From the NCBI GenBank assembly GCA_019120335.1, contig DWVH01000038.1:34321-58320 (forward strand): a stretch of DNA of 24,000 nucleotides, given 5' to 3'. The translations under genes were made by a program, and so were the position numbers. This stretch comes from Candidatus Enterococcus stercoripullorum. Lineage in GTDB: Bacteria > Bacillota > Bacilli > Lactobacillales > Enterococcaceae. Below the pieces are notes generated by a model. The model did not search any database and had not been told where the DNA came from. It saw only the letters and a list, made by a program, of their open reading frames with translations. Of the stretch, positions 1 to 10,229 are shown in pieces (positions within the stretch are counted from its first letter, which is position 1; every line of letters starts with the position of its first letter).

Positions 1-132
1 ATAATTAATTTGTACAAATATTTAGAACCTGCACTTCGTTGATAAAATCGACATTTCGTAGATAGTTAATTGAAATTTTTCTTTTAAGGGTTTACATTGT
101 AGTTGAAAAGAGAAAGAAAGGGGGATAAGAAA

Positions 133-186
133 ATGATTCAGGCGGATATTTTTGACTGGTGGTGGCGGATAATTACTGGAAGATAG
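133..186 (+). CDS. Micro-ORF, 17 aa (MIQADIFDWWWRIITGR); function unknown
   Basis: ATG at 133 lies 7 nt after a strong SD-like GGGGGA (120-126). Stop TAG is at 184-186. It sits directly upstream of the thioredoxin-like gene. Too short for the ORF track. No homology can be asserted. Confidence 0.2.
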   Translation: MIQADIFDWWWRIITGR

Positions 187-217
187 AAATAATGTTGAAA
201 AAATTGGGGGAGATTAG

Positions 218-817
218 GTGTATAGTAAGATAAAATTTATCGTTTTAACTATGGCTATAATTTTACTTATTTTTTTTGGATTCTACATAAAGAATCAGGA
301 AAATAAGGGAGTATTAAATTCAAAAGTGAGACAAACAGTTCAAAAACAAGCTTATGATAAAATGGAGAATTATGAAAAATATTGGTTGGAAAAGTCTATT
401 CCGTCAATGAAAGTAACAAATCTGAGTAATGAACCTATTATAATTGAAAACAACTCTAGCCCTAGTTTATATGTGGTATGGGCTAGTTGGTGTCCCGATT
501 GTCAAAGAGAGTTACCTATTATTGATTCACTATATAATGAGTTTTCGGAAAATGTTAATTTTATTACGATAGATTTAGTCGGTTTTAAGGGAGAAACTAT
601 CGAAGATGCAAAAAGAATGTGTGAAGATAAAGATTTGAGTGTGCCAGTGTTTTTTGATACTACCAAGCAAGTTTACCAAAAATTAAATATTTTTGCTATT
701 CCAACTTTATTTTTTGTAAATAATAAAGGAATTATTAAAAATATAATAATTGAAAATGCTGATGAAAGTACATGTAGAAAGCTTATAAAGAATTTATTAG
801 TTAGTAATAAATCTTAA
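218..817 (+). CDS. Membrane-anchored thioredoxin-like thiol-disulfide oxidoreductase (TlpA/ResA/BdbA-like)
   Basis: GTG start lies after SD GGGGGAG. N-terminal TM helix (FIVLTMAIILLIFFGFYI). Thioredoxin-fold active site VVWASWCPDCQRELP (CxxC). A cis-Pro region (FAIPTLFF) is typical of the family. Confidence 0.8.
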   Translation: MYSKIKFIVLTMAIILLIFFGFYIKNQENKGVLNSKVRQTVQKQAYDKMENYEKYWLEKSIPSMKVTNLSNEPIIIENNSSPSLYVVWASWCPDCQRELPIIDSLYNEFSENVNFITIDLVGFKGETIEDAKRMCEDKDLSVPVFFDTTKQVYQKLNIFAIPTLFFVNNKGIIKNIIIENADESTCRKLIKNLLVSNKS

Positions 818-908
818 GTTTATTAAAGTTTAATTTTTGTCGTTACTATTTATTTATAGTAGGTTGGAATGTAACAGTTGGGTGAATTGAAAGAGAGGGG
901 GTGATACT

Positions 909-1007
909 ATGAAAAAACTAACTCTAAAGAAGAAACTTTCAGTTTTTGCTGGCCGTTTCTGTGTGATTGGACTTCCGTGGGGAATCGGACTATTTTGCTT
1001 CGATTAA
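909..1007 (+). CDS. Candidate bacteriocin/peptide precursor, 32 aa (MKKLTLKKKLSVFAGRFCVIGLPWGIGLFCFD)
   Basis: My own translation; the ORF is not in the track. Strong SD AGAGGGGGTG ends about 6 nt before the ATG. Basic N-terminus is followed by a hydrophobic C-terminal part with exactly two Cys. It lies between a thioredoxin gene and the ABC/C39 exporter genes. Confidence 0.6.
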   Translation: MKKLTLKKKLSVFAGRFCVIGLPWGIGLFCFD

Positions 1008-1013
1008 AGTAAT

Positions 1014-1049
1014 TATCAAATAATATAGCATATTGTTATCTATTTGATA
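1014..1049. promoter_or_regulatory. Imperfect palindrome (TATCAAATA ... TATTTGATA) just downstream of the peptide ORF; possible operator or weak hairpin
   Basis: The 9-nt arms at 1014-1022 and 1041-1049 are exact reverse complements. There is an inner AATAT/ATATT symmetry. AT-rich, so significance is modest. Confidence 0.3.
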
Positions 1050-1073
1050 CGAGAAGTTACAATTCTAGGTCAT

Positions 1074-1120
1074 GGTCGGTGGTTAATATGGTTTATGTAG
1101 ACTGCCGACCCTTTGTTTAT
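1074..1120 (+). terminator. Possible leaky terminator/attenuator between precursor ORF and ABC genes
   Basis: GGTCGG (1074-1079) pairs with CCGACC (1105-1110), followed by CTTTGTTTAT. The loop is large (~25 nt), so this is weak. Confidence 0.3.
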
Positions 1121-1134
1121 GGGGAGGTCTCCAA

Positions 1135-2001
1135 ATGGGTAATGAAATTCTTAGAATAGATAGAGTGTGTAAAAAATATGGTGCGAAATATGTTTTAAAT
1201 AATATTTCAATAAATATTAATAAGGGCGAAATATATGGAATTGTTGGTGAAAATGGTGCGGGTAAAACTACATTGATGAGAATTATTTTAAAACTTGTTT
1301 ATCAAACATCTGGAACAATATCATCATCAAAAACAATGCATATAGGTGGCTTAGTTGAAGCACCTGCACTTTATAATTCTCTTTCTGCATATGAAAATTT
1401 AAAATATTACGCTCAAGTGCTAAGTATTAACGATAAAGAAAGGAAAATTAAAGATATTTTGGATTGTGTAGGATTATCTAATGTTGAAGAAAATAAAAAG
1501 GTAAAAGATTTTTCTTTAGGAATGAAACAACGATTAGCAATTGCACTTGTTTTATTGGATAGACCGAATGTATTGATTTTAGATGAACCAACAAATGGAC
1601 TTGACCCTACTGGTGTGAGAGATATTAGAAAACTGATTATAAAATTAAAAGCAGATTACGATATGACAATATTGATTTCTAGTCATATTTTACGAGAACT
1701 AGATTCAATTGTTGACTGTTATCTCATTATGCATAAAGGGAGACTAATTACAAAACTAAGTAGTGATGAATTGATACAGAATAAAATAGTTATACAGGTA
1801 TCAAATATAAAATTAGCATATTCAATATTGAGTGACAGAGTAAATAATGTTGAAATAATAAACAAAAATATAGAAGTAAAAGATGAAAAAATAACAGTTG
1901 ATAATATTATAAACGTGTTGCGAGATAATAATATTGAAATAGAAGGAATTTATAAAAGAAGAATTAGTTTTGAAGATTACTATCTTGAAAAGAAAGAGTG
2001 A
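1135..2001 (+). CDS. ABC transporter ATP-binding protein, ABC-2 / LanF- or BcrA-like (putative self-protection transporter)
   Basis: Walker A GENGAGKTT, signature FSLGMKQR, Walker B LILDEP, H-loop SSHIL. SD GGGGAGG lies upstream of the ATG. Confidence 0.9.
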   Translation: MGNEILRIDRVCKKYGAKYVLNNISININKGEIYGIVGENGAGKTTLMRIILKLVYQTSGTISSSKTMHIGGLVEAPALYNSLSAYENLKYYAQVLSINDKERKIKDILDCVGLSNVEENKKVKDFSLGMKQRLAIALVLLDRPNVLILDEPTNGLDPTGVRDIRKLIIKLKADYDMTILISSHILRELDSIVDCYLIMHKGRLITKLSSDELIQNKIVIQVSNIKLAYSILSDRVNNVEIINKNIEVKDEKITVDNIINVLRDNNIEIEGIYKRRISFEDYYLEKKE

Positions 2002-2711
2002 TGAAGGTGTACAGTTTATTTAAAGCCGATTTACATAGATATATTTATGAAAAAAAATATTTATGGACTCTAATTATTCCGTTTTTGATAGTTGCGTGTC
2101 TGGGGATTATATTAAAAGACAAAACGAATACTCAGGGCGTCAACATTATTTTAAAAACAATGAGTATGATTAATCCATTATTTTTTTCGACTATTTGTCA
2201 TTTTTTTATTGGAGAGGATTTTTCTTCTAGGACTATCAATAATTTAATTATCAAATTTTCTAGAAACAAGATATTTTTCTATAAGAGTATTTCAACAATA
2301 ATTTATTCAATATTTTTTATATTTTATGTTTATACAATAATATTATTATTAAATTATTTCTTTTTCAGTTACTTTAATTTTAGTTTTATCTTTAAACTAT
2401 TTTTTTATCAATTTCCATACTATGTAGGTGTTGTTTCTTTATGTATATTCATATTTAATTATGTTGATAAAATTGTTCAAGCATTTGTTATATATTTGAT
2501 ATTTGCTATATCTTTTGACGATCTTTTCCTGTATGTTTTTGGAAATGTAATTGATTCCAAAGTAATCGAGAAGTTTCTCTTGTTTTATCAATTGAAAAAT
2601 ATTGATATTGATAAGTCTTTTTTTAATCTTTCGCTATGGATTGTAATCATATTTATTTTTACTTTCTTGTTATTAAGTTATTTCTTATTTAATACTAGAG
2701 AATTTAAGTAA
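2001..2711 (+). CDS. ABC-2 type integral membrane permease partner
   Basis: Overlaps the ATPase stop (TGATG; the track start is GTG at 1998). Extremely hydrophobic, about 6 predicted TM segments. Translationally coupled to the upstream ATPase. Confidence 0.75.
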   Translation: MKVYSLFKADLHRYIYEKKYLWTLIIPFLIVACLGIILKDKTNTQGVNIILKTMSMINPLFFSTICHFFIGEDFSSRTINNLIIKFSRNKIFFYKSISTIIYSIFFIFYVYTIILLLNYFFFSYFNFSFIFKLFFYQFPYYVGVVSLCIFIFNYVDKIVQAFVIYLIFAISFDDLFLYVFGNVIDSKVIEKFLLFYQLKNIDIDKSFFNLSLWIVIIFIFTFLLLSYFLFNTREFK

Positions 2712-2737
2712 AGGGATTCTATTGTGAGGTGATATTC

Positions 2738-3325
2738 ATGCGGAAAGTTTTTCCTTTATTAATTATAATTGTTTTACTATTTCTGTTAGCAATTTTAGTT
2801 AGTTTATATCAATCAAAAACCACAATTTATGTAGATAAATCGTGGACAATACAAGAAAAAAATATAGAAAGTATTGATTTGTATGGTACTGAACAGCCTA
2901 TAAAGGTATTGATAGATAACGAAAATAAGTTTGAAAGAACAGTGGTAAGCGTATCAGGAAATGTTTCAAAATCAACTTTAGATACAATAAAAAAAGCAAA
3001 AAATAGAAAAAGTAAGTTGTATATTCCGTTTTCTCAAAAAGGTTTTAAATTGATAACGACGTCAATTGGGAAAGATGAATTGATAGTGAAGATACAATTA
3101 GGACGAAATGCAACTTTTAAATTTATCAATATAAACACTTGGAATGGGAAAATCACAGTAAAGGTACCGAAAAATTATGACGGTAGTTATGATGTAAAAT
3201 TAAATCAAGGAGCTAAATTAATTGAATGTCCTCCTACTGAAAGAACAATGAAAAGTGTTATAAAAATAGATGCTTATCAAGATACAATTATTGAAAGAAG
3301 CGATAGAAATGATTCATCATCATAA
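2738..3325 (+). CDS. Membrane-anchored, beta-rich extracytoplasmic protein of unknown function (possibly DUF4097/LiaG-like)
   Basis: ATG at 2738 follows SD GAGGTGA (the track start 2729 has no SD). Single N-terminal TM (FPLLIIIVLLFLLAILVSL). Alternating beta-like segments such as NTWNGKITVKVPKNYDGSYDVKL. The family assignment is tentative. Confidence 0.55.
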   Translation: MRKVFPLLIIIVLLFLLAILVSLYQSKTTIYVDKSWTIQEKNIESIDLYGTEQPIKVLIDNENKFERTVVSVSGNVSKSTLDTIKKAKNRKSKLYIPFSQKGFKLITTSIGKDELIVKIQLGRNATFKFININTWNGKITVKVPKNYDGSYDVKLNQGAKLIECPPTERTMKSVIKIDAYQDTIIERSDRNDSSS

Positions 3326-5348
3326 ACAACATTCTATTTCAGATTGCGGTCTGTCTTGTTTAAAAACATTATTATCTTATTTAAATATACAAACAAATGA
3401 TATAGATAAATATTTTGATTTATGTGGTGAACAAGGACTTTCTTTATATGATTTGGAAAAAATTTTACGAAAATATGGGGTAGAGTCAGAAGCTTATGAA
3501 ATTATAGATACTTCATTAATTGAGTCTATTAGTTTACCATATATTGCAGTTATTAGTAGAAATTCTTTTACACATTACATTGTTGTTCTTGATTATAAAA
3601 TGGATATAGGTTTTACGGTATCTGATCCAGCAGAATCTACGTTTACAAATCTGCGATATGACGATTTTATCAGTATATTTACAGGGATTGTATTAACACC
3701 TGTAAAAAATGTAAATACAATGAATAGAAAAGTTAGAACATTTTCAAAAGAAAAAGATGATTATTCAAAAGAACTGTATAATGAGTTTATAAAAGAACTT
3801 TCGATATTAAAAAGAATGAATTTATTTGTTTTAGGATGTGTAAAAATTATTTTACCGATTTTTCTTTCCTTGTTTATGCAGTATATGACTGTAAATATAA
3901 TATCTATTGAAATGAGCACTCAAGTTTTTTTGGTTATTTTCATTATATTTTGTCTAATAGTATATAAAATAATCAGTATGACTGAAGTTAATTTGAGAGT
4001 AAGTTTAGAAAATGAACTTTTAAAAATAGTTTTGAATAGGTATTATGAGAAAAGACTACAAAAAATTGCAGATAATAGAAACTATGACTACATTTTGGGA
4101 TATTTTTGGAATTTACTAACGTCTGTTTCGGGAATATTACAAAAATTTTATATGAAGATATACCTATTTTTAGTTGTTATTTCAATTTTGTTAATATTTT
4201 GGTTTAATTATATTTTTGGGATTATTACATGCTTATTTTTAATGTTTTTATTTTTATACAATGGTTTCAAATTATCATACATAGAAAGTATTCAGAGAGG
4301 CTTGGTAAGTTCAAGTTCCAATTTTACTTATCTAGTTGAAAGTTCAATTGATGGAACTTATGATATTTTATCATTTTCTAAGGTAGATGATTTTAGAAAA
4401 GAATTTGATAAAAGGTTAAGTAATTTATTACAAGAAAAGATGAATTATGAGAATATTAACAATCAAATATTAACATCTATTCAAGTTTTTTCAGTAACTT
4501 TAATTTGTTTACTGATATTAGTTAGTCATATATTTTATTTTGATACAACAATTATTGACTATACAAATATTGTTTTCATTATATTGTTGTTATCAACTAT
4601 ATTACAGCCTCTACTTGTTACTTGGTTATCTTATTTCAAAAGTAAGTATTCTATGAATTTTGTTCATTTGAAATCGTTTTTTTACGAACAAACATTGATA
4701 GAAAAAAACTTAACATTTAACAAAATTGATTCTGTCGTTCTTGAAAATATATCTGCTACTTATGGTGATAAAAGAATTTTTGATAATATAAATATTCGTT
4801 TTGATTCTGGAAACATATATGTAATAACTGGTCATAACGGTTCTGGAAAAAGTACTCTATTAAAAATATTACATGGATTTATAAAACCAAATCAAGGTTA
4901 TATATATTTAAATGATTCAAAATTTGAAAGTTTAATAGATACTGATGTACAAAAGTATGTGGCTCTTTATACAAATGAGTTTAGGGTGTTTGCTGGAAGC
5001 GTAGAACAAAATATAAAATTTAATATGTTTGATGATGTAAGACAAATAGTAGCAGACGATAGTTCGTTTATTGGTCTACCTTTGTCATATCTAATTAATT
5101 CTAATGGGCGTAATCTATCTCAGGGTCAAAGACAAAAAATTTTATTGTTAAGGACACTGAAGCTAGATAGGGATATATATTTTTTTGATGAACCTACAAC
5201 AAATTTAGATACTCATACAAAAAAAGAATTTATTAAGAAGCTTATGGAGTTGAAAGAGCGTGGAAAAATTATTTTAATTGTTTCACATGATAATGATTTA
5301 ATAAAAATATCGTCTAATATTCTGAATATGAATCAATACGCAGTTTAA
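3309..5348 (+). CDS. Bacteriocin-type ABC exporter with N-terminal C39 peptidase domain (SunT/LagD/ComA-like)
   Basis: C39 motifs: Q-x5-C (KQHSISDCGLSCL), His (FTHYIVVLD), Asp (VSDPAE). Multi-TM core. C-terminal NBD with Walker A GHNGSGKST, signature LSQGQRQK, Walker B YFFDEP, H-loop VSHD. Start is uncertain (3270 in the track; 3309 puts the ATG just before the C39 domain). Confidence 0.85.
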   Translation: MIHHHKQHSISDCGLSCLKTLLSYLNIQTNDIDKYFDLCGEQGLSLYDLEKILRKYGVESEAYEIIDTSLIESISLPYIAVISRNSFTHYIVVLDYKMDIGFTVSDPAESTFTNLRYDDFISIFTGIVLTPVKNVNTMNRKVRTFSKEKDDYSKELYNEFIKELSILKRMNLFVLGCVKIILPIFLSLFMQYMTVNIISIEMSTQVFLVIFIIFCLIVYKIISMTEVNLRVSLENELLKIVLNRYYEKRLQKIADNRNYDYILGYFWNLLTSVSGILQKFYMKIYLFLVVISILLIFWFNYIFGIITCLFLMFLFLYNGFKLSYIESIQRGLVSSSSNFTYLVESSIDGTYDILSFSKVDDFRKEFDKRLSNLLQEKMNYENINNQILTSIQVFSVTLICLLILVSHIFYFDTTIIDYTNIVFIILLLSTILQPLLVTWLSYFKSKYSMNFVHLKSFFYEQTLIEKNLTFNKIDSVVLENISATYGDKRIFDNINIRFDSGNIYVITGHNGSGKSTLLKILHGFIKPNQGYIYLNDSKFESLIDTDVQKYVALYTNEFRVFAGSVEQNIKFNMFDDVRQIVADDSSFIGLPLSYLINSNGRNLSQGQRQKILLLRTLKLDRDIYFFDEPTTNLDTHTKKEFIKKLMELKERGKIILIVSHDNDLIKISSNILNMNQYAV

Positions 5349-5389
5349 TAGATTGGTTGGACCGTGTAAAGTTTTTGTTGGTAAGTTAA

Positions 5390-5418
5390 TTACGAACATC
5401 CCCTCCATGGTGTATAAT
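5390..5418 (+). promoter_or_regulatory. Possible sigma-A promoter (TTACGA-17-TATAAT)
   Basis: The -10 TATAAT at 5413-5418 is perfect. The -35 TTACGA at 5390-5395 matches 3/6. It lies upstream of the 29-aa ORF. Confidence 0.3.
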
Positions 5419-5451
5419 AATAGTGAACAACAAACACAGGAGGAGAGATAC

Positions 5452-5541
5452 ATGTATAAGTTGATTATGTACCAATTTTTACAAAATTTAAATCAAGAAA
5501 GCTTAGAAGATAGCGTAAATGTCTTATTGTTTTTTGATTAA
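5452..5541 (+). CDS. Small ORF, 29 aa (MYKLIMYQFLQNLNQESLEDSVNVLLFFD); unknown
   Basis: Strong SD AGGAGG (5437-5442) lies about 8 nt upstream of the ATG. This is the 3' part of track ORF 5353..5541, whose upstream start lacks any SD. No TM segment, no Cys. Confidence 0.3.
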   Translation: MYKLIMYQFLQNLNQESLEDSVNVLLFFD

Positions 5542-5557
5542 AAGGCTTACAATGAGA

Positions 5558-5586
5558 TTGACGAAAGGAAAGTGTGGTTATAAGAT
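5558..5586 (+). promoter_or_regulatory. Sigma-A promoter candidate (TTGACG-17-TAAGAT)
   Basis: TTGACG at 5558-5563, 17-nt spacer, TAAGAT at 5581-5586. About 75 nt upstream of the 55-aa membrane ORF. Confidence 0.45.
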
Positions 5587-5661
5587 GACTTTTCATAAGT
5601 GGTGGCAGTGATTACTCATTAGCTATTATAGAAAGAACATGGATAAAAGAAGGGAAAAGCG

Positions 5662-5829
5662 ATGAAAAAAGATCATTTATTAATCTTTAGTTTTGTATTA
5701 GCATTTTTACTGACGATTATTTTCAATGCTTATCTTCCTTCCGTCGCAAAAGTATTTAATTTTGTCACTTTTTGGATGCTAATTGCTGTGATAGTATATA
5801 GAGTCTTAATAAATAGAAGAAAGAGATGA
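5662..5829 (+). CDS. Small 2-TM membrane protein, 55 aa; paralog of the 7231..7425 product
   Basis: My own translation: MKKDHLLIFSFVLAFLLTIIFNAYLPSVAKVFNFVTFWMLIAVIVYRVLINRRKR. It aligns with ...LLPILLNSFSPTAARVYDFVSFWLFIFAALYLVVYELYKKKKG. SD AAGGGAAAAG lies upstream. Confidence 0.55.
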   Translation: MKKDHLLIFSFVLAFLLTIIFNAYLPSVAKVFNFVTFWMLIAVIVYRVLINRRKR

Positions 5830-5844
5830 AGGAGGGAATTTCAG

Positions 5845-6105
5845 ATGGTAATTAAGAAGTATTATCCAGTTCTACTTGTGATTGGTCTGTTGTTTTGGTT
5901 GAGTGTGTTTATCCTTCCCGCTGATTTTTTGAGTGCTATATTAGGAAATTTTCGTTGGGGTGGTGTCGTCGGATTGATTATTAATCCGATAATTGGTGTA
6001 ATTTGTTTGCTTTTGGCTTTACGATATAAGAATTATTGGATAGCTGGCTTAAGCATTCTTTTAGCTGGACTTCTTCCACTTGCAATTACGTTATTTGGAT
6101 TTTAA
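5845..6105 (+). CDS. Small integral membrane protein, 86 aa, unknown function
   Basis: SD GAAGGAGGG lies 8 nt upstream. Three hydrophobic segments. Follows the previous small gene by 15 nt. Confidence 0.6.
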   Translation: MVIKKYYPVLLVIGLLFWLSVFILPADFLSAILGNFRWGGVVGLIINPIIGVICLLLALRYKNYWIAGLSILLAGLLPLAITLFGF

Positions 6106-6110
6106 GTATG

Positions 6111-6155
6111 TCATTCTCCTTCGAAAATTAAATGAGGAAGAATGATTGTTTCGTT
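6111..6155 (+). terminator. Rho-independent terminator candidate
   Basis: TCATTCTCCT (6111-6120) pairs with AGGAAGAATGA (6135-6145) with a 1-nt bulge, followed by TTGTTTCGTT. Confidence 0.5.
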
Positions 6156-6157
6156 GT

Positions 6158-6331
6158 AATGATAACGTTTTATCTCAAGCGTGAGTTGTTATATAATGAA
6201 CTTATGAAAGTGATGTTGAAGTAAGGAAATAGGAAGAAAATCTTGATAGCTGATTCTATTTACTCATCATTGGAGTTACACATTAGAAAGATGGGAAGAG
6301 TCTTATGTTGCAAGCATTAAACAAAAAATGA
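6158..6331 (+). pseudogene. Decayed duplicate of the promoter/5' region of the 7164..7458 small-membrane-protein operon
   Basis: Shared blocks: AATGATAACGTTTTA (6158-6172 and 7164-7178); TATAATGAAC; GAA(G/A)AAAATCTTG(-/G)(A)TA. The 24-nt block GAGTCTTATGTTGCAAGCATTAAA is identical (6298-6321 and 7424-7447). In this copy the first gene is collapsed and interrupted, and the second ends after 8 codons (MLQALNKK*). Confidence 0.5.
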
Positions 6332-6445
6332 TATTAATATTACAGCGTAGAATAATCATGAATGATTAGAAAGGAGAAATTATTTCGGAAAAATGCGGTT
6401 ATTTAGTGGTTTTGTAATAATTTATAATATTTAGAAAAGAGGCGA

Positions 6446-6940
6446 ATGAAAATGTCAAAGAAATTAGTAAAATTGGGAGCTACTATTTTTTTAATTATCA
6501 CATTATTTAGTCAAGTATGTATTCCTTTTATCTATGCGGATGAAGTAGGGGATCAGACTATGAAAATTGAAATCGAAAAGAAAGAATTAGATAAAACAGA
6601 TACCATGAAAAATGTAGAATATTTAGAAAATCAGTGGTTAATAGGATATTTAAATAAAGATGGTAATATTGAAATGTATACTTCAATAGGGAGAGAGAGA
6701 AATGGTGCATTATTAAAAATCTTGGTTTATATAGGGAAGATAGTTGTTGGGTATATATATGCTACAGTTATTGATGGTATTGTCATTGCTGCTACTGGTA
6801 AAAGTGGTGCAGAATGGGTATCTATTGCTATTAAAAATGTTGTAGGAAAAAAATATACAGGGAAAGTATATTTGCCTGAAAATGGTCCATATACTTGTCC
6901 CAGTGTAGTTATTGACCATTCTGGAATGTGTGGTGGATAA
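6446..6940 (+). CDS. Secreted protein, 164 aa, with Gly-rich hydrophobic C-terminal half and C-terminal Cys pair; candidate secreted toxin/large bacteriocin-like protein
   Basis: Sec-type signal peptide (KKLVKLGATIFLIITLFSQVCIPFIYA|DEV). C-terminal segment GALLKILVYIGKIVVGYIYATVIDGIVIAATGKSGAEWVSIAIKNVVGKK, then YTCPSVVIDHSGMCGG. No family recognised. Confidence 0.6.
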   Translation: MKMSKKLVKLGATIFLIITLFSQVCIPFIYADEVGDQTMKIEIEKKELDKTDTMKNVEYLENQWLIGYLNKDGNIEMYTSIGRERNGALLKILVYIGKIVVGYIYATVIDGIVIAATGKSGAEWVSIAIKNVVGKKYTGKVYLPENGPYTCPSVVIDHSGMCGG

Positions 6941-6942
6941 TT

Positions 6943-7035
6943 ATGAAAAAAACAGCTAAAATAAATAAACTATCTTTAAGTGCTTATATTTTAGGTATAC
7001 TTATATATATATTGGTACATCTCCTGCTTTTGTAA
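6943..7035 (+). CDS. 30-aa hydrophobic peptide (MKKTAKINKLSLSAYILGILIYILVHLLLL); possible immunity/partner peptide
   Basis: My own translation. The ATG lies 2 nt after the stop of the 164-aa gene (translational coupling is plausible). Single TM-like segment. Followed by a terminator. Confidence 0.4.
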   Translation: MKKTAKINKLSLSAYILGILIYILVHLLLL

Positions 7036-7060
7036 CAAATAGTGTAATATGCATACACAA

Positions 7061-7094
7061 AAAGCTCCCTCTTTACGAACAGGGAGTTTTTCTT
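7061..7094 (+). terminator. Rho-independent terminator
   Basis: GCTCCCT (7064-7070) pairs with AGGGAG (7081-7086), 10-nt loop, then TTTTTCTT. An A-run lies upstream. Confidence 0.55.
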
Positions 7095-7194
7095 GTCCAT
7101 TAACTTTAATGTTGACTTTTGTTAGTCATTTGAACGTAAATAAAAAGTTACACTATCCCACACAATGATAACGTTTTAATTTGTTATAAATACA

Positions 7195-7203
7195 TGATAT
7201 AAT
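7195..7203 (+). promoter_or_regulatory. Extended -10 promoter element (TGATATAAT)
   Basis: TG-n-TATAAT with the hexamer at 7198-7203, about 28 nt upstream of the ATG at 7231. No good -35. Confidence 0.45.
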
Positions 7204-7230
7204 GAACCTATAAGAAAGGCTGTGAAAATC

Positions 7231-7425
7231 ATGAACAAAAAGAAAAAATCTTGGTATACAATCCTGTTTATTTGTGCTGGAATTCTTGGGTTTTTGCTAC
7301 CTATTCTCTTAAACAGCTTTTCCCCAACAGCTGCTAGAGTTTATGACTTTGTTAGTTTCTGGTTGTTCATTTTCGCAGCACTTTATTTAGTCGTTTATGA
7401 ATTATATAAGAAAAAGAAAGGGTGA
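7231..7425 (+). CDS. Small 2-TM membrane protein (64 aa from ATG 7231; the track gives GTG 7222)
   Basis: Hydrophobic 2-TM protein with a Lys-rich C-terminus. Paralog of the 5662..5829 product. SD AGAAAGG lies upstream. Confidence 0.6.
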   Translation: MNKKKKSWYTILFICAGILGFLLPILLNSFSPTAARVYDFVSFWLFIFAALYLVVYELYKKKKG

Positions 7426-7430
7426 GTCTT

Positions 7431-7661
7431 ATGTTGCAAGCATTAAATAAAAAAATGAGAAGTCTAGATCTAAAATTTAGAAGTTTAGATAGTACGATGA
7501 AATTTTTGGTTGTCATTTATGGCGCGCTATTTGGCTTTATGACTGGTTACTTAATCTATAAATTATTTGTGGCACATGACTATTTCTTTCTATTCATTTA
7601 CATTATTTTTATGATTGGAATGTATATCAATTTATATTTTCAAAAAAAGTATCCGATGTGA
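7431..7661 (+). CDS. Small membrane protein, 76 aa from ATG 7431 (the track gives GTG 7422)
   Basis: SD AAGGGTGAG overlaps the upstream stop and lies about 5 nt before the ATG. Two hydrophobic segments. Confidence 0.6.
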   Translation: MLQALNKKMRSLDLKFRSLDSTMKFLVVIYGALFGFMTGYLIYKLFVAHDYFFLFIYIIFMIGMYINLYFQKKYPM

Positions 7662-7725
7662 GCTTGCTTTGAGTGCGTGCTGCTATTTTTAAATGATAAA
7701 GGGATACGAATTTAGGTAAAATTAG

Positions 7726-7767
7726 AAACGATGTGATGAATTTGATTTCGGGCATCGTTTTTTTGTC
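7726..7767 (+). terminator. Rho-independent terminator candidate
   Basis: AAACGATG (7726-7733) pairs with CATCGTTT (7753-7760), followed by a T-run. The loop is about 19 nt. Confidence 0.45.
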
Positions 7768-7811
7768 ATATTTTTAGTATAATGGAAAGGATGAAGGGAT
7801 TGAAATGATTT

Positions 7812-10229
7812 ATGGCGCAAAGAAAGAAAAGAAAATCGACCAAGAGAACAAAAAAACAGCAAGCCAATAATCAAACCATGGCAATGATTATTACCGGCTT
7901 TTCTTTTATTTTTTTAAGTTTACTTGGTTTATTTAAATTAGGCTTTTTAGGCATTTTATTTGCCAATATATTAAGATTTTTTGTTGGAAATACGTACCCA
8001 TTATTAGCGGTAATACTCATTTTTTATGGAATCTGGTTATTAGTCAAACATCAGCTTAGCGTATTTGATTCTCATAAGCGTAGTGCAGGATTGGCATTAA
8101 CTTATGTGGGGATATTAGTGATTGTTTCGGCGATGCTTTTTGCTAAGATTCATACGAAGAATCCTAATATTTTAGGAACAACGCTAAATCTATGGATGAG
8201 TGATTTAAAACATAGCCAAATTAGCCAAAGTCTTGGTGGAGGCATGATTGGTGGCGCACTCTATCAAGTAACCTATTTCTTAGTAGCCCAATTTGGTAGT
8301 TATGTATTGGGTGTCTTAAGTATTTTTGTTGGGGTCTTTTTATTTACGCAAAAGTCAGCACAAGATTTGATTGATTTTCTGCAAGATTTTGGCGAGGCAA
8401 TTAGTCAACGTCTCAAGGTCAGTGAAGAAAAACAAAAATTGCGTGAAGAAAAGAAAAAGGCCAAACAAGCGAAAAAAGAGGCTGAAAAAGAAGCACTCCG
8501 TCAGCAAATGTTAGAACAGCAGAAAAATCAAGTGCGACCTTTTACTGAAACTGAGGAACAAGAACGCCAGCATAAAGCACCAGAAATGATTATTGAGCCT
8601 CATCAGATGAGTTTAATTGAGCCAACTGAGGCTGAAAAGTTAATGCAAGAACAAAAGGATGCGAGTCAGATTCCACCCAAACGTTCCCACAAAACCAAAG
8701 CAGCTCCTGAAGAGGACATAGAAGGCGATGATCCATTAGAATTTAGTATGGAAAATGAGGAGCCAGATGAATTTTATGAGTTGCCACCAAATACATTACT
8801 TGATCCGGCAAAAGTTCAAGATCAAAGCGATGAATATGAAAAAATTAAGCAAAACGGGGAAATTTTAAATCAGACTTTCCAAAGCTTTGGCGTCGATGCT
8901 ACGGTGGTGAAGGCAAGTTTAGGTCCTTCTGTGACGAAATTTGAGATTCAGCCAGCTGTTGGGGTAAAAGTGAGCAAAATTGTTAGTTTAACCGATGATA
9001 TTGCCTTAGCTTTAGCGGCCAAAGATATTCGGATGGAAGCGCCCATTCCTGGTAAGTCATTGATTGGGATTGAGGTGCCAAACCAAAATATTTCGATGGT
9101 TTCGTTTAGAGAAGTCATTGAAGCCACACCGGCACATCCAGACAAGATTCTTGAAGTGCCATTAGGTCGTGATATTTCTGGTAAAGTGCAGACATGTGAT
9201 TTAACGAAAATGCCACACTTATTGATTGCTGGTTCGACAGGTAGTGGGAAGTCGGTAGCGATTAATGGGATTATCACCAGTATTTTGATGCAAGCCAAAC
9301 CACATCAAGTGAAATTAATGATGGTCGATCCGAAAATGGTTGAGTTGAATGTGTATAATGGCATCCCACATCTCTTAACACCAGTGGTAACCAACCCACG
9401 TAAAGCTGCCCAAGCGCTTCAAAAAGTCGTGAAAGAAATGGAAGAACGCTATGAAAAATTTGCGGCTACTGGTGTGCGCAACATTGCTGGTTATAATGAA
9501 CTAATTGAAGCAAAAAATCAAGAAGATGGGCAAAAACGTCCAATTCTACCATTTATTGTGGTGATTGTTGATGAATTGGCTGACTTAATGATGGTCGCAA
9601 GTAATGAAGTAGAAGATGCGATTATTCGTTTGGCACAAATGGCTCGTGCTGCTGGGATTCATATGATTTTAGCCACACAACGGCCAAGTGTTGATGTCAT
9701 TACGGGAATTATCAAAGCCAATGTACCTTCACGTATTGCCTTTGCGGTCTCTTCAGGAACGGATTCGCGCACCATTATTGATAGTCATGGGGCAGAAAAA
9801 CTATTGGGACGTGGCGATATGCTTTACCTACCAATGGGTGAGAATAAACCTATCCGTGTGCAGGGGGCCTTTATTTCAGATGGAGAAGTTGAGCGTATTG
9901 TCAAATTTGTAACCGATCAAATGGGGGCAAATTATGACGAGAAGATGATGAATCTGGAAGAAGAAGCACCAAGTGAAAGCAATAATGACTATCCACAAGA
10001 TGAATTGTATGAAGAAGCCAAGGCCTTAGTTGTTGAAATGCAAACGGCAAGTGTTTCGCTTTTACAACGGCGCTTTAGAATTGGTTATAATCGAGCTGCC
10101 CGTCTGGTAGATGAGTTAGAAGCCAATGGGGTAGTTGGCCCTTCTGAGGGGAGTAAACCACGTAAAGTCTATCTGGAATCCCTAGATACACCTGTAGATT
10201 ATGAGGAGATACCCCAAGATTATGAATAA
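7812..10229 (+). CDS. ftsK: DNA translocase FtsK/SpoIIIE
   Basis: N-terminal 4-TM domain and a charged Lys/Glu/Gln-rich linker. Motor domain with Walker [10 protein letters not shown] and Walker [14 protein letters not shown]-terminal gamma winged-helix ([24 protein letters not shown]). Confidence 0.95.

Follow-up and report, generated by a model that had tools for sequence, protein, structure and literature searches.

The closest described relatives of the locus considered here are the blp loci of streptococci, which are known to encode two-Cys class II salivaricins and, in Streptococcus thermophilus, the thiol-disulfide oxidase BlpG(St) (PMC11564875, PMC10059821). Streptococcal bacteriocin systems usually place differing quorum-sensing inputs onto one conserved output cassette (PMC5295010; PMC11564875). 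Bactofencin A of Ligilactobacillus salivarius is a 22-amino-acid (aa) peptide made with a double-glycine (GG) leader and exported by a C39 ATP-binding cassette (ABC) transporter; apart from one disulfide closing a large loop it is left unmodified (PMC3809560). In Streptococcus gordonii, the oxidase SdbA forms disulfides in secreted proteins (PMC5112981, PMC10783030). Here we analyse a 24,000-nucleotide stretch of Candidatus Enterococcus stercoripullorum (GenBank contig DWVH01000038.1; hereafter the window, numbered from its first letter), whose first 5.3 kb carry a comparable locus. With a probability of about 0.6, as judged from sequence, this locus would specify, under quorum control, a class II bacteriocin-like peptide that is stapled by a disulfide and otherwise unmodified, a putative antimicrobial, together with ABC-type immunity.

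In its architecture this is a Blp/thermophilin-type class II locus, and no new principle is required to account for it. As in the Blp/thermophilin loci, a LytTR regulator and an HPK10-type kinase accompany a C39-ABC exporter, GG-type two-Cys peptides and a membrane-anchored thiol-disulfide oxidoreductase encoded within the locus (PMC11564875, PMC10059821). Unlike Blp loci, the window has neither a BlpC-like pheromone gene nor a BlpB/ComB-type accessory protein, its apparent immunity lies with an ABC/beta-helix triad instead of CAAX/Abi or small immunity proteins, the peptide cores comprise 16–17 aa as against 30–60 aa, the predicted cleavage site is Ala-Gly, and the exporter reaches no NCBIfam subfamily cut-off. 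Bactofencin A is the nearest analogue of the peptide itself, being short, otherwise unmodified and closed by a single disulfide, as is predicted for the peptide here. However, it is strongly cationic, carries a 31-aa leader and is paired with a DltB homologue for immunity, whereas the peptides described here are neutral to mildly cationic, hydrophobic, and without sequence similarity to it. What appears to be new is a family of unrecognised peptides in which Ala-Gly is invariant and the cores are very short, along with a divergent exporter and an undescribed three-component ABC/beta-helix pump. If active, peptides of 16–17 residues with one disulfide would rank with the smallest known unmodified bacteriocins and be easily synthesised; they occur in Streptococcus suis, a zoonotic pig pathogen, and in a gut Enterococcus lineage.

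The precursor peptide family and its exporter

The candidate precursor is encoded at 909..1007 by an open reading frame (ORF) of 32 codons; like all window features discussed below, it lies on the forward strand. A strong Shine–Dalgarno sequence (AGAGGGGG) stands 8 nt 5' of its ATG. The product, of the type termed alpha here, would consist of a 15-aa double-glycine-type leader, MKKLTLKKKLSVFAG, which terminates in AG, and a 17-aa core with two Cys, RFCVIGLPWGIGLFCFD. One or two ORFs of 31–32 aa occupy the same position in every related locus that covers the region upstream of the ATPase gene, namely L006, L008, L010 and the S. suis loci L011–L013, and, as a pseudogene, L099. The peptide is kept with the exporter in six of six lineages that have a C39 gene or its remnant and the peptide position on the contig, and in the window, L006, L008 and L010–L013 the peptide gene lies on the same strand as the C39-ABC gene and within 2.3 kb of it.

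Three lineages encode two different peptides per locus, given here as leader and core: MKKLSKKEKKMITAG with RFCIVGLPKRKGLFCWD and MKKLTNNEKKMITAG with RLCVFNIRKIGYFCFD in L006, MKKLTKLQKILVVAG with RFCIVGFPKGGGFLCWD and MRKLNILEKSSIAAG with QFCLYYWHGIRFLCWD in L008, and MKKLTKLQKMFVVAG with RFCIIGFPGGGGFLCWD and MRKLKMREKTKITAG with QICLYYWYGIGFLCWD in S. suis L011. S. suis L012 and L013 have only the second, or beta, type. All follow the pattern M-[KR]-K-L…A-G↓[RQ]-x-C-x10-11-C-[FW]-D, in which nine columns (M1, K3, L4, K9, A14, G15, C18, C30 and D32) are invariant over eight aligned sequences. Alpha cores have 17 residues (RFC..G.P…G..C[FW]D) and beta cores have 16 and are more aromatic; the sequence of the loop between the cysteines varies strongly between lineages. 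The window and L010 ORFs differ solely by a synonymous GGC to GGT change. Since frame, length, position and nine residues are kept while the flanking proteins are merely 32–47% identical between lineages, the conservation of this ORF reflects selection and not chance.

Double-glycine leaders are some 15–30 aa long, with Gly-Gly (or GA/GS) at -2/-1, hydrophobic residues at -4, -7, -12 and -15, and Glu at -8. Here the leader has 15 aa; Gly at -1 and Ala at -2 are invariant in all eight aligned sequences (the L099 pseudogene has Val-Gly), as are Met at -15 and Leu at -12, and position -4 is Val or Ile. At position -8, five of the eight sequences have Glu, two have Gln, and the window has Lys. By alignment, the leader fits the double-glycine type at -15, -12, -4 and -1, and at -8 in five of eight. 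The two invariant Cys would, by analogy with known disulfide-looped peptides, form a disulfide closing a 13–14-residue loop; the mature window peptide would then have a monoisotopic mass of 1939.948 Da in its oxidised form. Core charges in the homologues range from -1 to +3. A reading of the leader as a lipoprotein or Sec signal was rejected, the segment being Lys-rich, with no lipobox and no hydrophobic core.

An earlier note, drawn up by a model from the DNA letters, had singled out this ORF as the exporter's substrate, pointed to its strong Shine–Dalgarno sequence, and held that the idea would fall if the ORF were not conserved or if a different substrate accompanied the exporter. The ORF proved to be conserved beside the exporter in all homologous loci, and no alternative substrate conserved alongside the exporter was found in them. 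The note's remark that the peptide belongs to no recognised family agrees with Pfam and NCBIfam scans, which returned no family at E values up to 1. The S. suis homologue is annotated just as 'Uncharacterised protein', and an exact look-up of the window peptide found no called gene. A full-text literature search with words of the peptide sequence yielded no relevant paper, and in the literature on S. suis bacteriocins and RNPP systems no description of the S. suis locus was found. Domain scans with the same two model collections found no modification enzyme encoded in the window block, as the note had also stated.

The predicted exporter, of the peptidase-containing ABC transporter (PCAT) type, is a 692-aa protein encoded at 3270..5348. 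It matches Pfam Peptidase_C39 (PF03412, 2.1e-19) and ABC_tran (1.3e-22) and, weakly, ABC_membrane (E 0.0011), and aligns over its full length with PCAT1 (PDB 4RY2; residues 19–674, E 6e-34) and ComA (8HF7). Q20, C26, H102 and D119 align with the catalytic residues of PCAT1 and are invariant among five homologues, in keeping with the intact C39 motifs reported before. Its scores lie below every curated NCBIfam subfamily cut-off tested, including TIGR01193 bacteriocin_ABC (106.6 bits, cut-off 523.85), NF045998 Mbov_0121 (the best, 209.8 against 500) and TIGR03796 (103.2 against 853.3); by these comparisons the exporter is a divergent PCAT lineage. Homologues begin at Met14, so translation probably starts there (3309). 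The overlap with the upstream 198-aa ORF is 56 nt, or 17 nt with the start at Met14, and similar overlaps in L006 and L011 suggest translational coupling.

The exporter is narrowly distributed. Its relatives in the protein collection are 81, 47, 44 and 42% identical, those in the homologous loci of S. suis and three metagenome lineages 41–47%, and a search of 185,579 species genomes turned it up in the species of the window and three S. suis genomes only. For the exporter, a word-indexed protein search recovered only five relatives, and for the 198-aa protein four; the wider family of the latter came into view with an exhaustive search. An exporter-alignment scan of metagenome contigs, dominated by the generic ABC motif DEPT[ST]NLD, gave 80 loci at no more than 33% identity and no family peptide at any of them.

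The ABC/beta-helix triad and the thioredoxin-like protein

Three further genes lie between those of the peptide and the exporter. They encode an ABC ATPase of 288 aa (1135..2001; ABC_tran, 5.5e-30), a permease of 237 aa that is multi-pass by hydropathy (1998..2711), and a 198-aa protein (2729..3325) predicted to comprise an N-terminal transmembrane helix and an extracytoplasmic all-beta, beta-helix-like domain. The ATPase is 44–48% identical across all homologous loci; its nearest NCBIfam models are the lantibiotic-protection ATPase TIGR03740 (210.1 bits, cut-off 309.75) and the PSM-export ATPase PmtC (181 bits), both scored below cut-off. The permease has no Pfam or NCBIfam match at E<=0.01, the MutE/EpiE/MutG models included; it is 32–39% identical in the homologous loci and always stands between the ATPase and the 198-aa protein.

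The 198-aa protein had been called LiaG-like. Its score with the LiaG model (NF049997) is 23.1 bits against a cut-off of 285 and concerns LiaG residues 1–112 only, and Pfam DUF7330 is likewise matched below cut-off. The weak resemblance and the fold thus stand while the family assignment does not: on the structural model, 'LiaG-like' is a matter of shared anchor-plus-beta-helix architecture and not of family membership. The AlphaFold2 model built from a 34-sequence alignment has a predicted local distance difference test score (pLDDT) of 92.7, compared with 43 for a single-sequence model, and its Foldseek matches are 'putative adhesin' beta-helix structures (4QRK, 3PET, 3LJY; TM 0.32–0.42). 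A search of 1.84 billion proteins gave 44 cluster representatives of the family at E<=1e-3; almost all that are full-length have 179–200 aa. The protein always follows the ATPase/permease pair, with or without a C39 exporter; it had previously been treated as standing alone, and by this constant association it is one unit with the ABC-2 pair within a wider triad family.

That wider family includes triads apart from any exporter. In L095, L096 and L101 the ATPase and/or permease is followed by a 198-aa homologue, and no peptide ORF or C39 gene was found on the recovered sequence, the contigs being short or ending right after the triad. In L101 (877–2045) one permease precedes two tandem paralogues of the 198-aa protein, of 189 and 195 aa. 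In the 6.9-Mb genome CP009284.1 (L097) the triad stands alone behind a HATPase_c_5 kinase and a LytTR regulator; these are just ~20% identical to the window's, which gives no evidence of an ancient link between two-component system and triad. L099 is a case of decay. Its beta-type peptide gene (260–365) is interrupted by an in-frame TAA, which separates MRKLSLNDKKKIVGVGF from ICIYRWRGFGFLCFD, and its exporter gene (2628–3602) is broken into short ORFs that align over residues 14–193 only; ATPase, permease and beta-helix protein are all intact. At the position of the stop, the beta peptides of S. suis and L008 have Gln, so a CAA-to-TAA change is possible. A pump kept while peptide and exporter are lost is the pattern of an immunity module in a 'cheater'.

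By analogy with such modules, we infer that the triad protects the producer, and the suggestion that the ABC-2 pair provides immunity is borne out to the extent that the pair is retained in L099 and occurs alone in distant genomes. The triad resembles LanFEG (with LanH/LanI) and PmtABCD in that an ABC-2-type pump with an extra membrane-anchored extracellular subunit lies beside a peptide gene. Unlike LanFEG, it scores below the cut-offs, has a permease outside MutE/EpiE/MutG and a beta-helix third subunit, and is accompanied by no lanthionine enzymes; it is LanFEG-like by context, while by its sequence scores it is no LanFEG member. With ~40 clusters, this uncharacterised family is probably a peptide-resistance pump that also occurs as an orphan module.

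Upstream of the peptide gene, 218..817 encodes a 199-aa thiol-disulfide oxidoreductase of the SdbA/TlpA/ResA type, predicted to be membrane-anchored and extracytoplasmic. It matches AhpC-TSA, Redoxin and Thioredoxin (E 1e-9 to 2e-13), contains the active site in VWASWCPDCQ and has a single N-terminal transmembrane helix by hydropathy, so that the WCPDC site and anchor noted earlier are both present. Its best solved relative is SdbA of S. gordonii (PDB 5UM7, E 1.2e-23, identical WASWCPDCQ), which has the same size, N-terminal anchor, thioredoxin fold and WCPDC. SdbA is a housekeeping protein, whereas the window gene is an accessory copy in a mobile island, present or absent between sister genomes. 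The S. suis L011 orthologue (35% identity, WCSDC) lies directly upstream of the peptide genes, and L008 (49% over 41 aa) and L099 (42% over 55 aa) each have a C-terminal fragment of the gene upstream of the peptides, at the edge of the contig. Altogether, four of five lineages (window, L011, L008, L099) have the gene next to those for the peptides. By analogy the thioredoxin is probably a helper that forms the peptide disulfide. The earlier claim that it is dedicated to the peptide gains from its SdbA relative and from this position in four lineages, and is weakened by its facultative presence (absent in L010 and L012/L013).

Alignment of window 1–1010 with L010, where the exporter is 99.7% identical to the window's, delimits a segment of ~118–890 (118..890) that contains a small ORF and the thioredoxin gene and is missing in L010; its end points lie in similar GAAAGAGA...GGGGG Shine–Dalgarno-like sequences. 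The thioredoxin segment is also present or absent between S. suis genomes (L011 ~6725–7640 compared with L012/L013), and L012/L013 lack both the thioredoxin and the alpha peptide. Both deletions end in purine runs resembling Shine–Dalgarno sequences, ahead of the first ORF and of the retained one, an arrangement that suggests recurrent recombination between short repeated ribosome-binding regions. As a rough measure of frequency, the S. suis clusters of the protein collection hold 20 thioredoxin members versus 204–243 for the triad proteins. This natural presence and absence of an oxidase in two species offers a ready-made experiment on the extent to which Gram-positive peptide secretion needs dedicated disulfide catalysts.

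Regulation, proposed mechanism and competing readings

The earlier note had suspected that a regulator might precede position 1. The exact window exporter sequence recurs on a 61-kb metagenome contig (L001), which has one there: a Response_reg+LytTR regulator at 4586–5314, followed by a multi-pass HATPase_c_5 kinase of AgrC/ComD type (431 aa, 5321–6616) that ends ~115 bp before window position 1. Scans of this contig covered a 22-kb stretch made up of the island and its flanks. Promoters of quorum regulons are recognised by ~9–10-bp direct repeats, ~20–21 bp apart, upstream of a -10 box. A putative LytTR-regulated promoter of this form occupies window 32..98, with the direct repeats CACTTCGTTG (32–41) and CATTTCGTAG (52–61) in a 20-bp register and a -10-like TACATT at 93–98, 31 bp downstream of the second repeat. 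The exact repeat pair is unique in the 22-kb stretch, a single instance, and L010 has an identical repeat box, immediately followed by the peptide gene. This arrangement would place the promoter under the control of the LytTR regulator. No separate gene for a GG-leader induction peptide was found in L001 4300–14500. An Agr-type system was considered and rejected, as no AgrB is present.

The first ORF behind the repeat-box promoter in the window is a small one at 103–186 (MKRERKGDKKMIQADIFDWWWRIITGR; from the ATG at 133, MIQADIFDWWWRIITGR), with AAAGGGGGA 8 nt 5' of that ATG; in L010 it is lost together with the thioredoxin gene. Its Trp-rich hydrophobic C-terminus presumably recalls pheromones of the XIP/SHP type; no RNPP regulator lies in its vicinity, and the region ahead of the L011 thioredoxin gene showed no homologue.

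Between the peptide gene and the pump genes lies a stem-loop, GGTCGGTGG...CTGCCGACC followed by CTTTGTTTAT (1074..1120), a candidate terminator or attenuator with a fold z-score of -2.8. A simple terminator scan passed over it, its T-run being interrupted. A GC-stem hairpin with a U-tract follows the peptide gene or genes in four of four lineages examined (window, L006, L008, L011), and there is no hairpin between the thioredoxin and peptide genes. A hairpin with a U-tract after the structural gene is usual for bacteriocins. This layout suggests that the peptide transcript is abundant and that transcription reads through to the pump genes only in part.

Upstream inputs differ by lineage. The S. 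suis cassette lies behind a 288-aa HTH_3+RNPP_C regulator (L011 5623–6853, strain WUSS225), and judging by these neighbours it may be controlled by an undescribed RNPP/short-peptide quorum-sensing pair. Downstream of this regulator, L011 has a 22-aa hydrophobic ORF, MISAFLICKILLIISPEIHIRI (6573–6641), of which L012 has a 20-aa version; a 42/48-aa membrane-like ORF lies between it and the thioredoxin gene. In L006 no adjacent sensor was seen. A LytTR two-component system here and an RNPP-type regulator in S. suis conform to the bacteriocin-cassette pattern of exchangeable inputs.

The following mechanism can be proposed. The upstream LytTR regulator and the AgrC/ComD-class kinase would activate the direct-repeat promoter at 32–98. 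The genes are ordered as SdbA-like oxidase, 32-aa precursor, terminator hairpin, triad and C39-ABC exporter, and may be read as a single transcript through a leaky terminator. From what is known of the family, the C39 domain would cut the 15-aa leader after the invariant Ala-Gly and the 17-aa core would be translocated. Outside the cell, a Cys3–Cys15 disulfide would staple a hydrophobic, hairpin-like loop, its formation being accelerated by the dedicated oxidase where present and otherwise left to housekeeping oxidoreductases or air. The peptide would then attack the envelope of competitors, and the three-component ABC pump, with its beta-helix subunit facing outward, would protect the producer. 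In the weakest step of this scheme, the peptide would double as inducer of the kinase in the window species, a role it probably has insofar as that species contains no separate pheromone or leader peptide gene. We consider it doubtful that one 17-aa disulfide macrocycle is both antimicrobial and ligand of an AgrC/ComD-class kinase, and that the three-component machine protects by capturing the peptide with its extracellular beta-helix subunit. If this were true, the locus would represent a class II bacteriocin that induces itself with one and the same peptide, its signal being a disulfide macrocycle and not a linear peptide or thiolactone.

Several observations weigh against the bacteriocin interpretation. 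The window core has a net charge of zero and a grand average of hydropathy (GRAVY) of 1.32; an uncharged, very hydrophobic core is unusual for bacteriocins and more pheromone-like. The leader has Ala, not Gly, at -2 and an invariant Lys, not a hydrophobic residue, at -7, which makes AG a putative cleavage site. The locus encodes no accessory protein of the ComB/LcnD type. The thioredoxin is missing from L006, L010 and S. suis L012/L013, hence it is facultative and oxidation by it not essential. Of 100 shuffled sequences, 33 contain a repeat pair with no more than three mismatches, which makes the promoter statistically weak, and the immunity role of the triad is argued from analogy and context, its permease and beta-helix protein being without characterised relatives. 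Alternatively, the peptide might be purely a quorum-sensing pheromone, disulfide-cyclised, C39-exported and sensed by the kinase, with the triad releasing or recycling the signal and no killing involved. The adjacent kinase and LytTR regulator, and the lack of any other leader-containing peptide in the island, would fit such a role, as would the place of the L010 peptide gene, the first behind the repeat box. An uncharged, hydrophobic, macrocyclic core is also what known autoinducing peptides have, and strong variation of the loop between lineages is what pherotypes show. We nevertheless judge a pheromone without killing unlikely: in S. suis the same cassette stands behind a cytoplasmic RNPP-type regulator, which has a short hydrophobic peptide candidate of its own, and no kinase is present, and L006 has no sensor next to it. 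Neither does it account readily for two different peptides per locus in three lineages, or for a dedicated ABC-2 pump, which the pure pheromone systems ComC/ComAB and BlpC/BlpAB do without; and losing peptide and exporter while keeping the triad, as in L099, makes sense for immunity and not for signalling.

Two other explanations are considerably less probable. The peptide might be a further-modified member of the ribosomally synthesised and post-translationally modified peptides, the enzyme being the 198-aa protein, a non-canonical thioredoxin or a protein encoded elsewhere. Since the 198-aa protein matches no family of assigned function, it could be such an enzyme; the invariant C-[FW]-D and [RQ]-x-C could serve as recognition sites, and the N-terminal Gln of beta-type cores could cyclise to pyroglutamate. 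That this is the case seems very unlikely, given that no locus encodes a radical-SAM, LanM/LanB, YcaO, cyclase or other modification domain, that the 198-aa protein accompanies the ABC-2 pair also in loci lacking a peptide, and that its model is a small extracellular beta-helix whose PDB fold matches are 'putative adhesin' only, with no enzymatic assignment. The explanation to which we give least credence takes the triad as a general antimicrobial-peptide resistance pump, and the small ORF and C39 gene as unrelated or decaying, with no functional production here. The triad does occur alone in distant genomes, one lineage has a decayed peptide and exporter, and the 32-aa ORF has never been called as a gene in the window species. 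In the window, however, the genes are all intact and the exporter keeps its catalytic residues, and the peptide ORF differs from that of L010 by a single synonymous change. In the lineages with a full cassette, peptide, triad and exporter remain syntenic at 32–47% protein identity, which argues for selection on the whole set.

The island and its other genes

The six genes of the locus lie on one strand, as had been reported, with ORFs at 218–817, 909–1007, 1135–2001, 1998–2711, 2729–3325 and 3270–5348, and in an AT-richer block (21–30% versus 35–43% GC). The block is wider than the 1–5348 to which the system had been confined, and the two-component system lies upstream of that interval. GC content is 0.21–0.30 over window 1–8000 and 0.32–0.43 from ftsK (7812) onward; the AT-rich block ends at ~7800 in the window and begins ~2.3 kb upstream of position 1. 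On L001 it runs from ~4450 to ~14540, the two-component system included. On the best explanation, an island of roughly 10 kb was acquired horizontally, and the first 5.3 kb of the window are its output operon. No tRNA genes were found on the 22-kb stretch of L001, and no Rfam families in window 1–8000. RlmN of the window core shares 95% identity with its counterpart in an Enterococcus columbae metagenome-assembled genome and 80–85% with those of other enterococci, which identifies the host as an Enterococcus lineage.

The rest of the island in the window (5353..7661) encodes membrane proteins of 55, 86, 67 and 79 aa and a 164-aa signal-peptide protein. The 55-aa and 67-aa products are paralogues (38% identical), and the N-terminus of the 164-aa protein resembles a signal peptide, while two Cys lie at its C-terminal end (…YTCPSVVIDHSGMCGG). 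Pfam and NCBIfam scans gave no family for any of these ORFs. They are restricted to the same or a sister species (L009, L010) and missing from S. suis and the other cassettes, and their link to the peptide system is uncertain; their products could be immunity-like, or a second substrate of the thioredoxin. In L010 the 164-aa gene is matched as two overlapping pieces. In L009 a DDE_Tnp_1 transposase fragment (2337–3039) lies between the exporter, which is 81% identical to the window's, and the ORFs of 55 and 86 aa, which are 98% identical to their window counterparts; from these differing identities on either side of the transposase fragment, the island is a mosaic.

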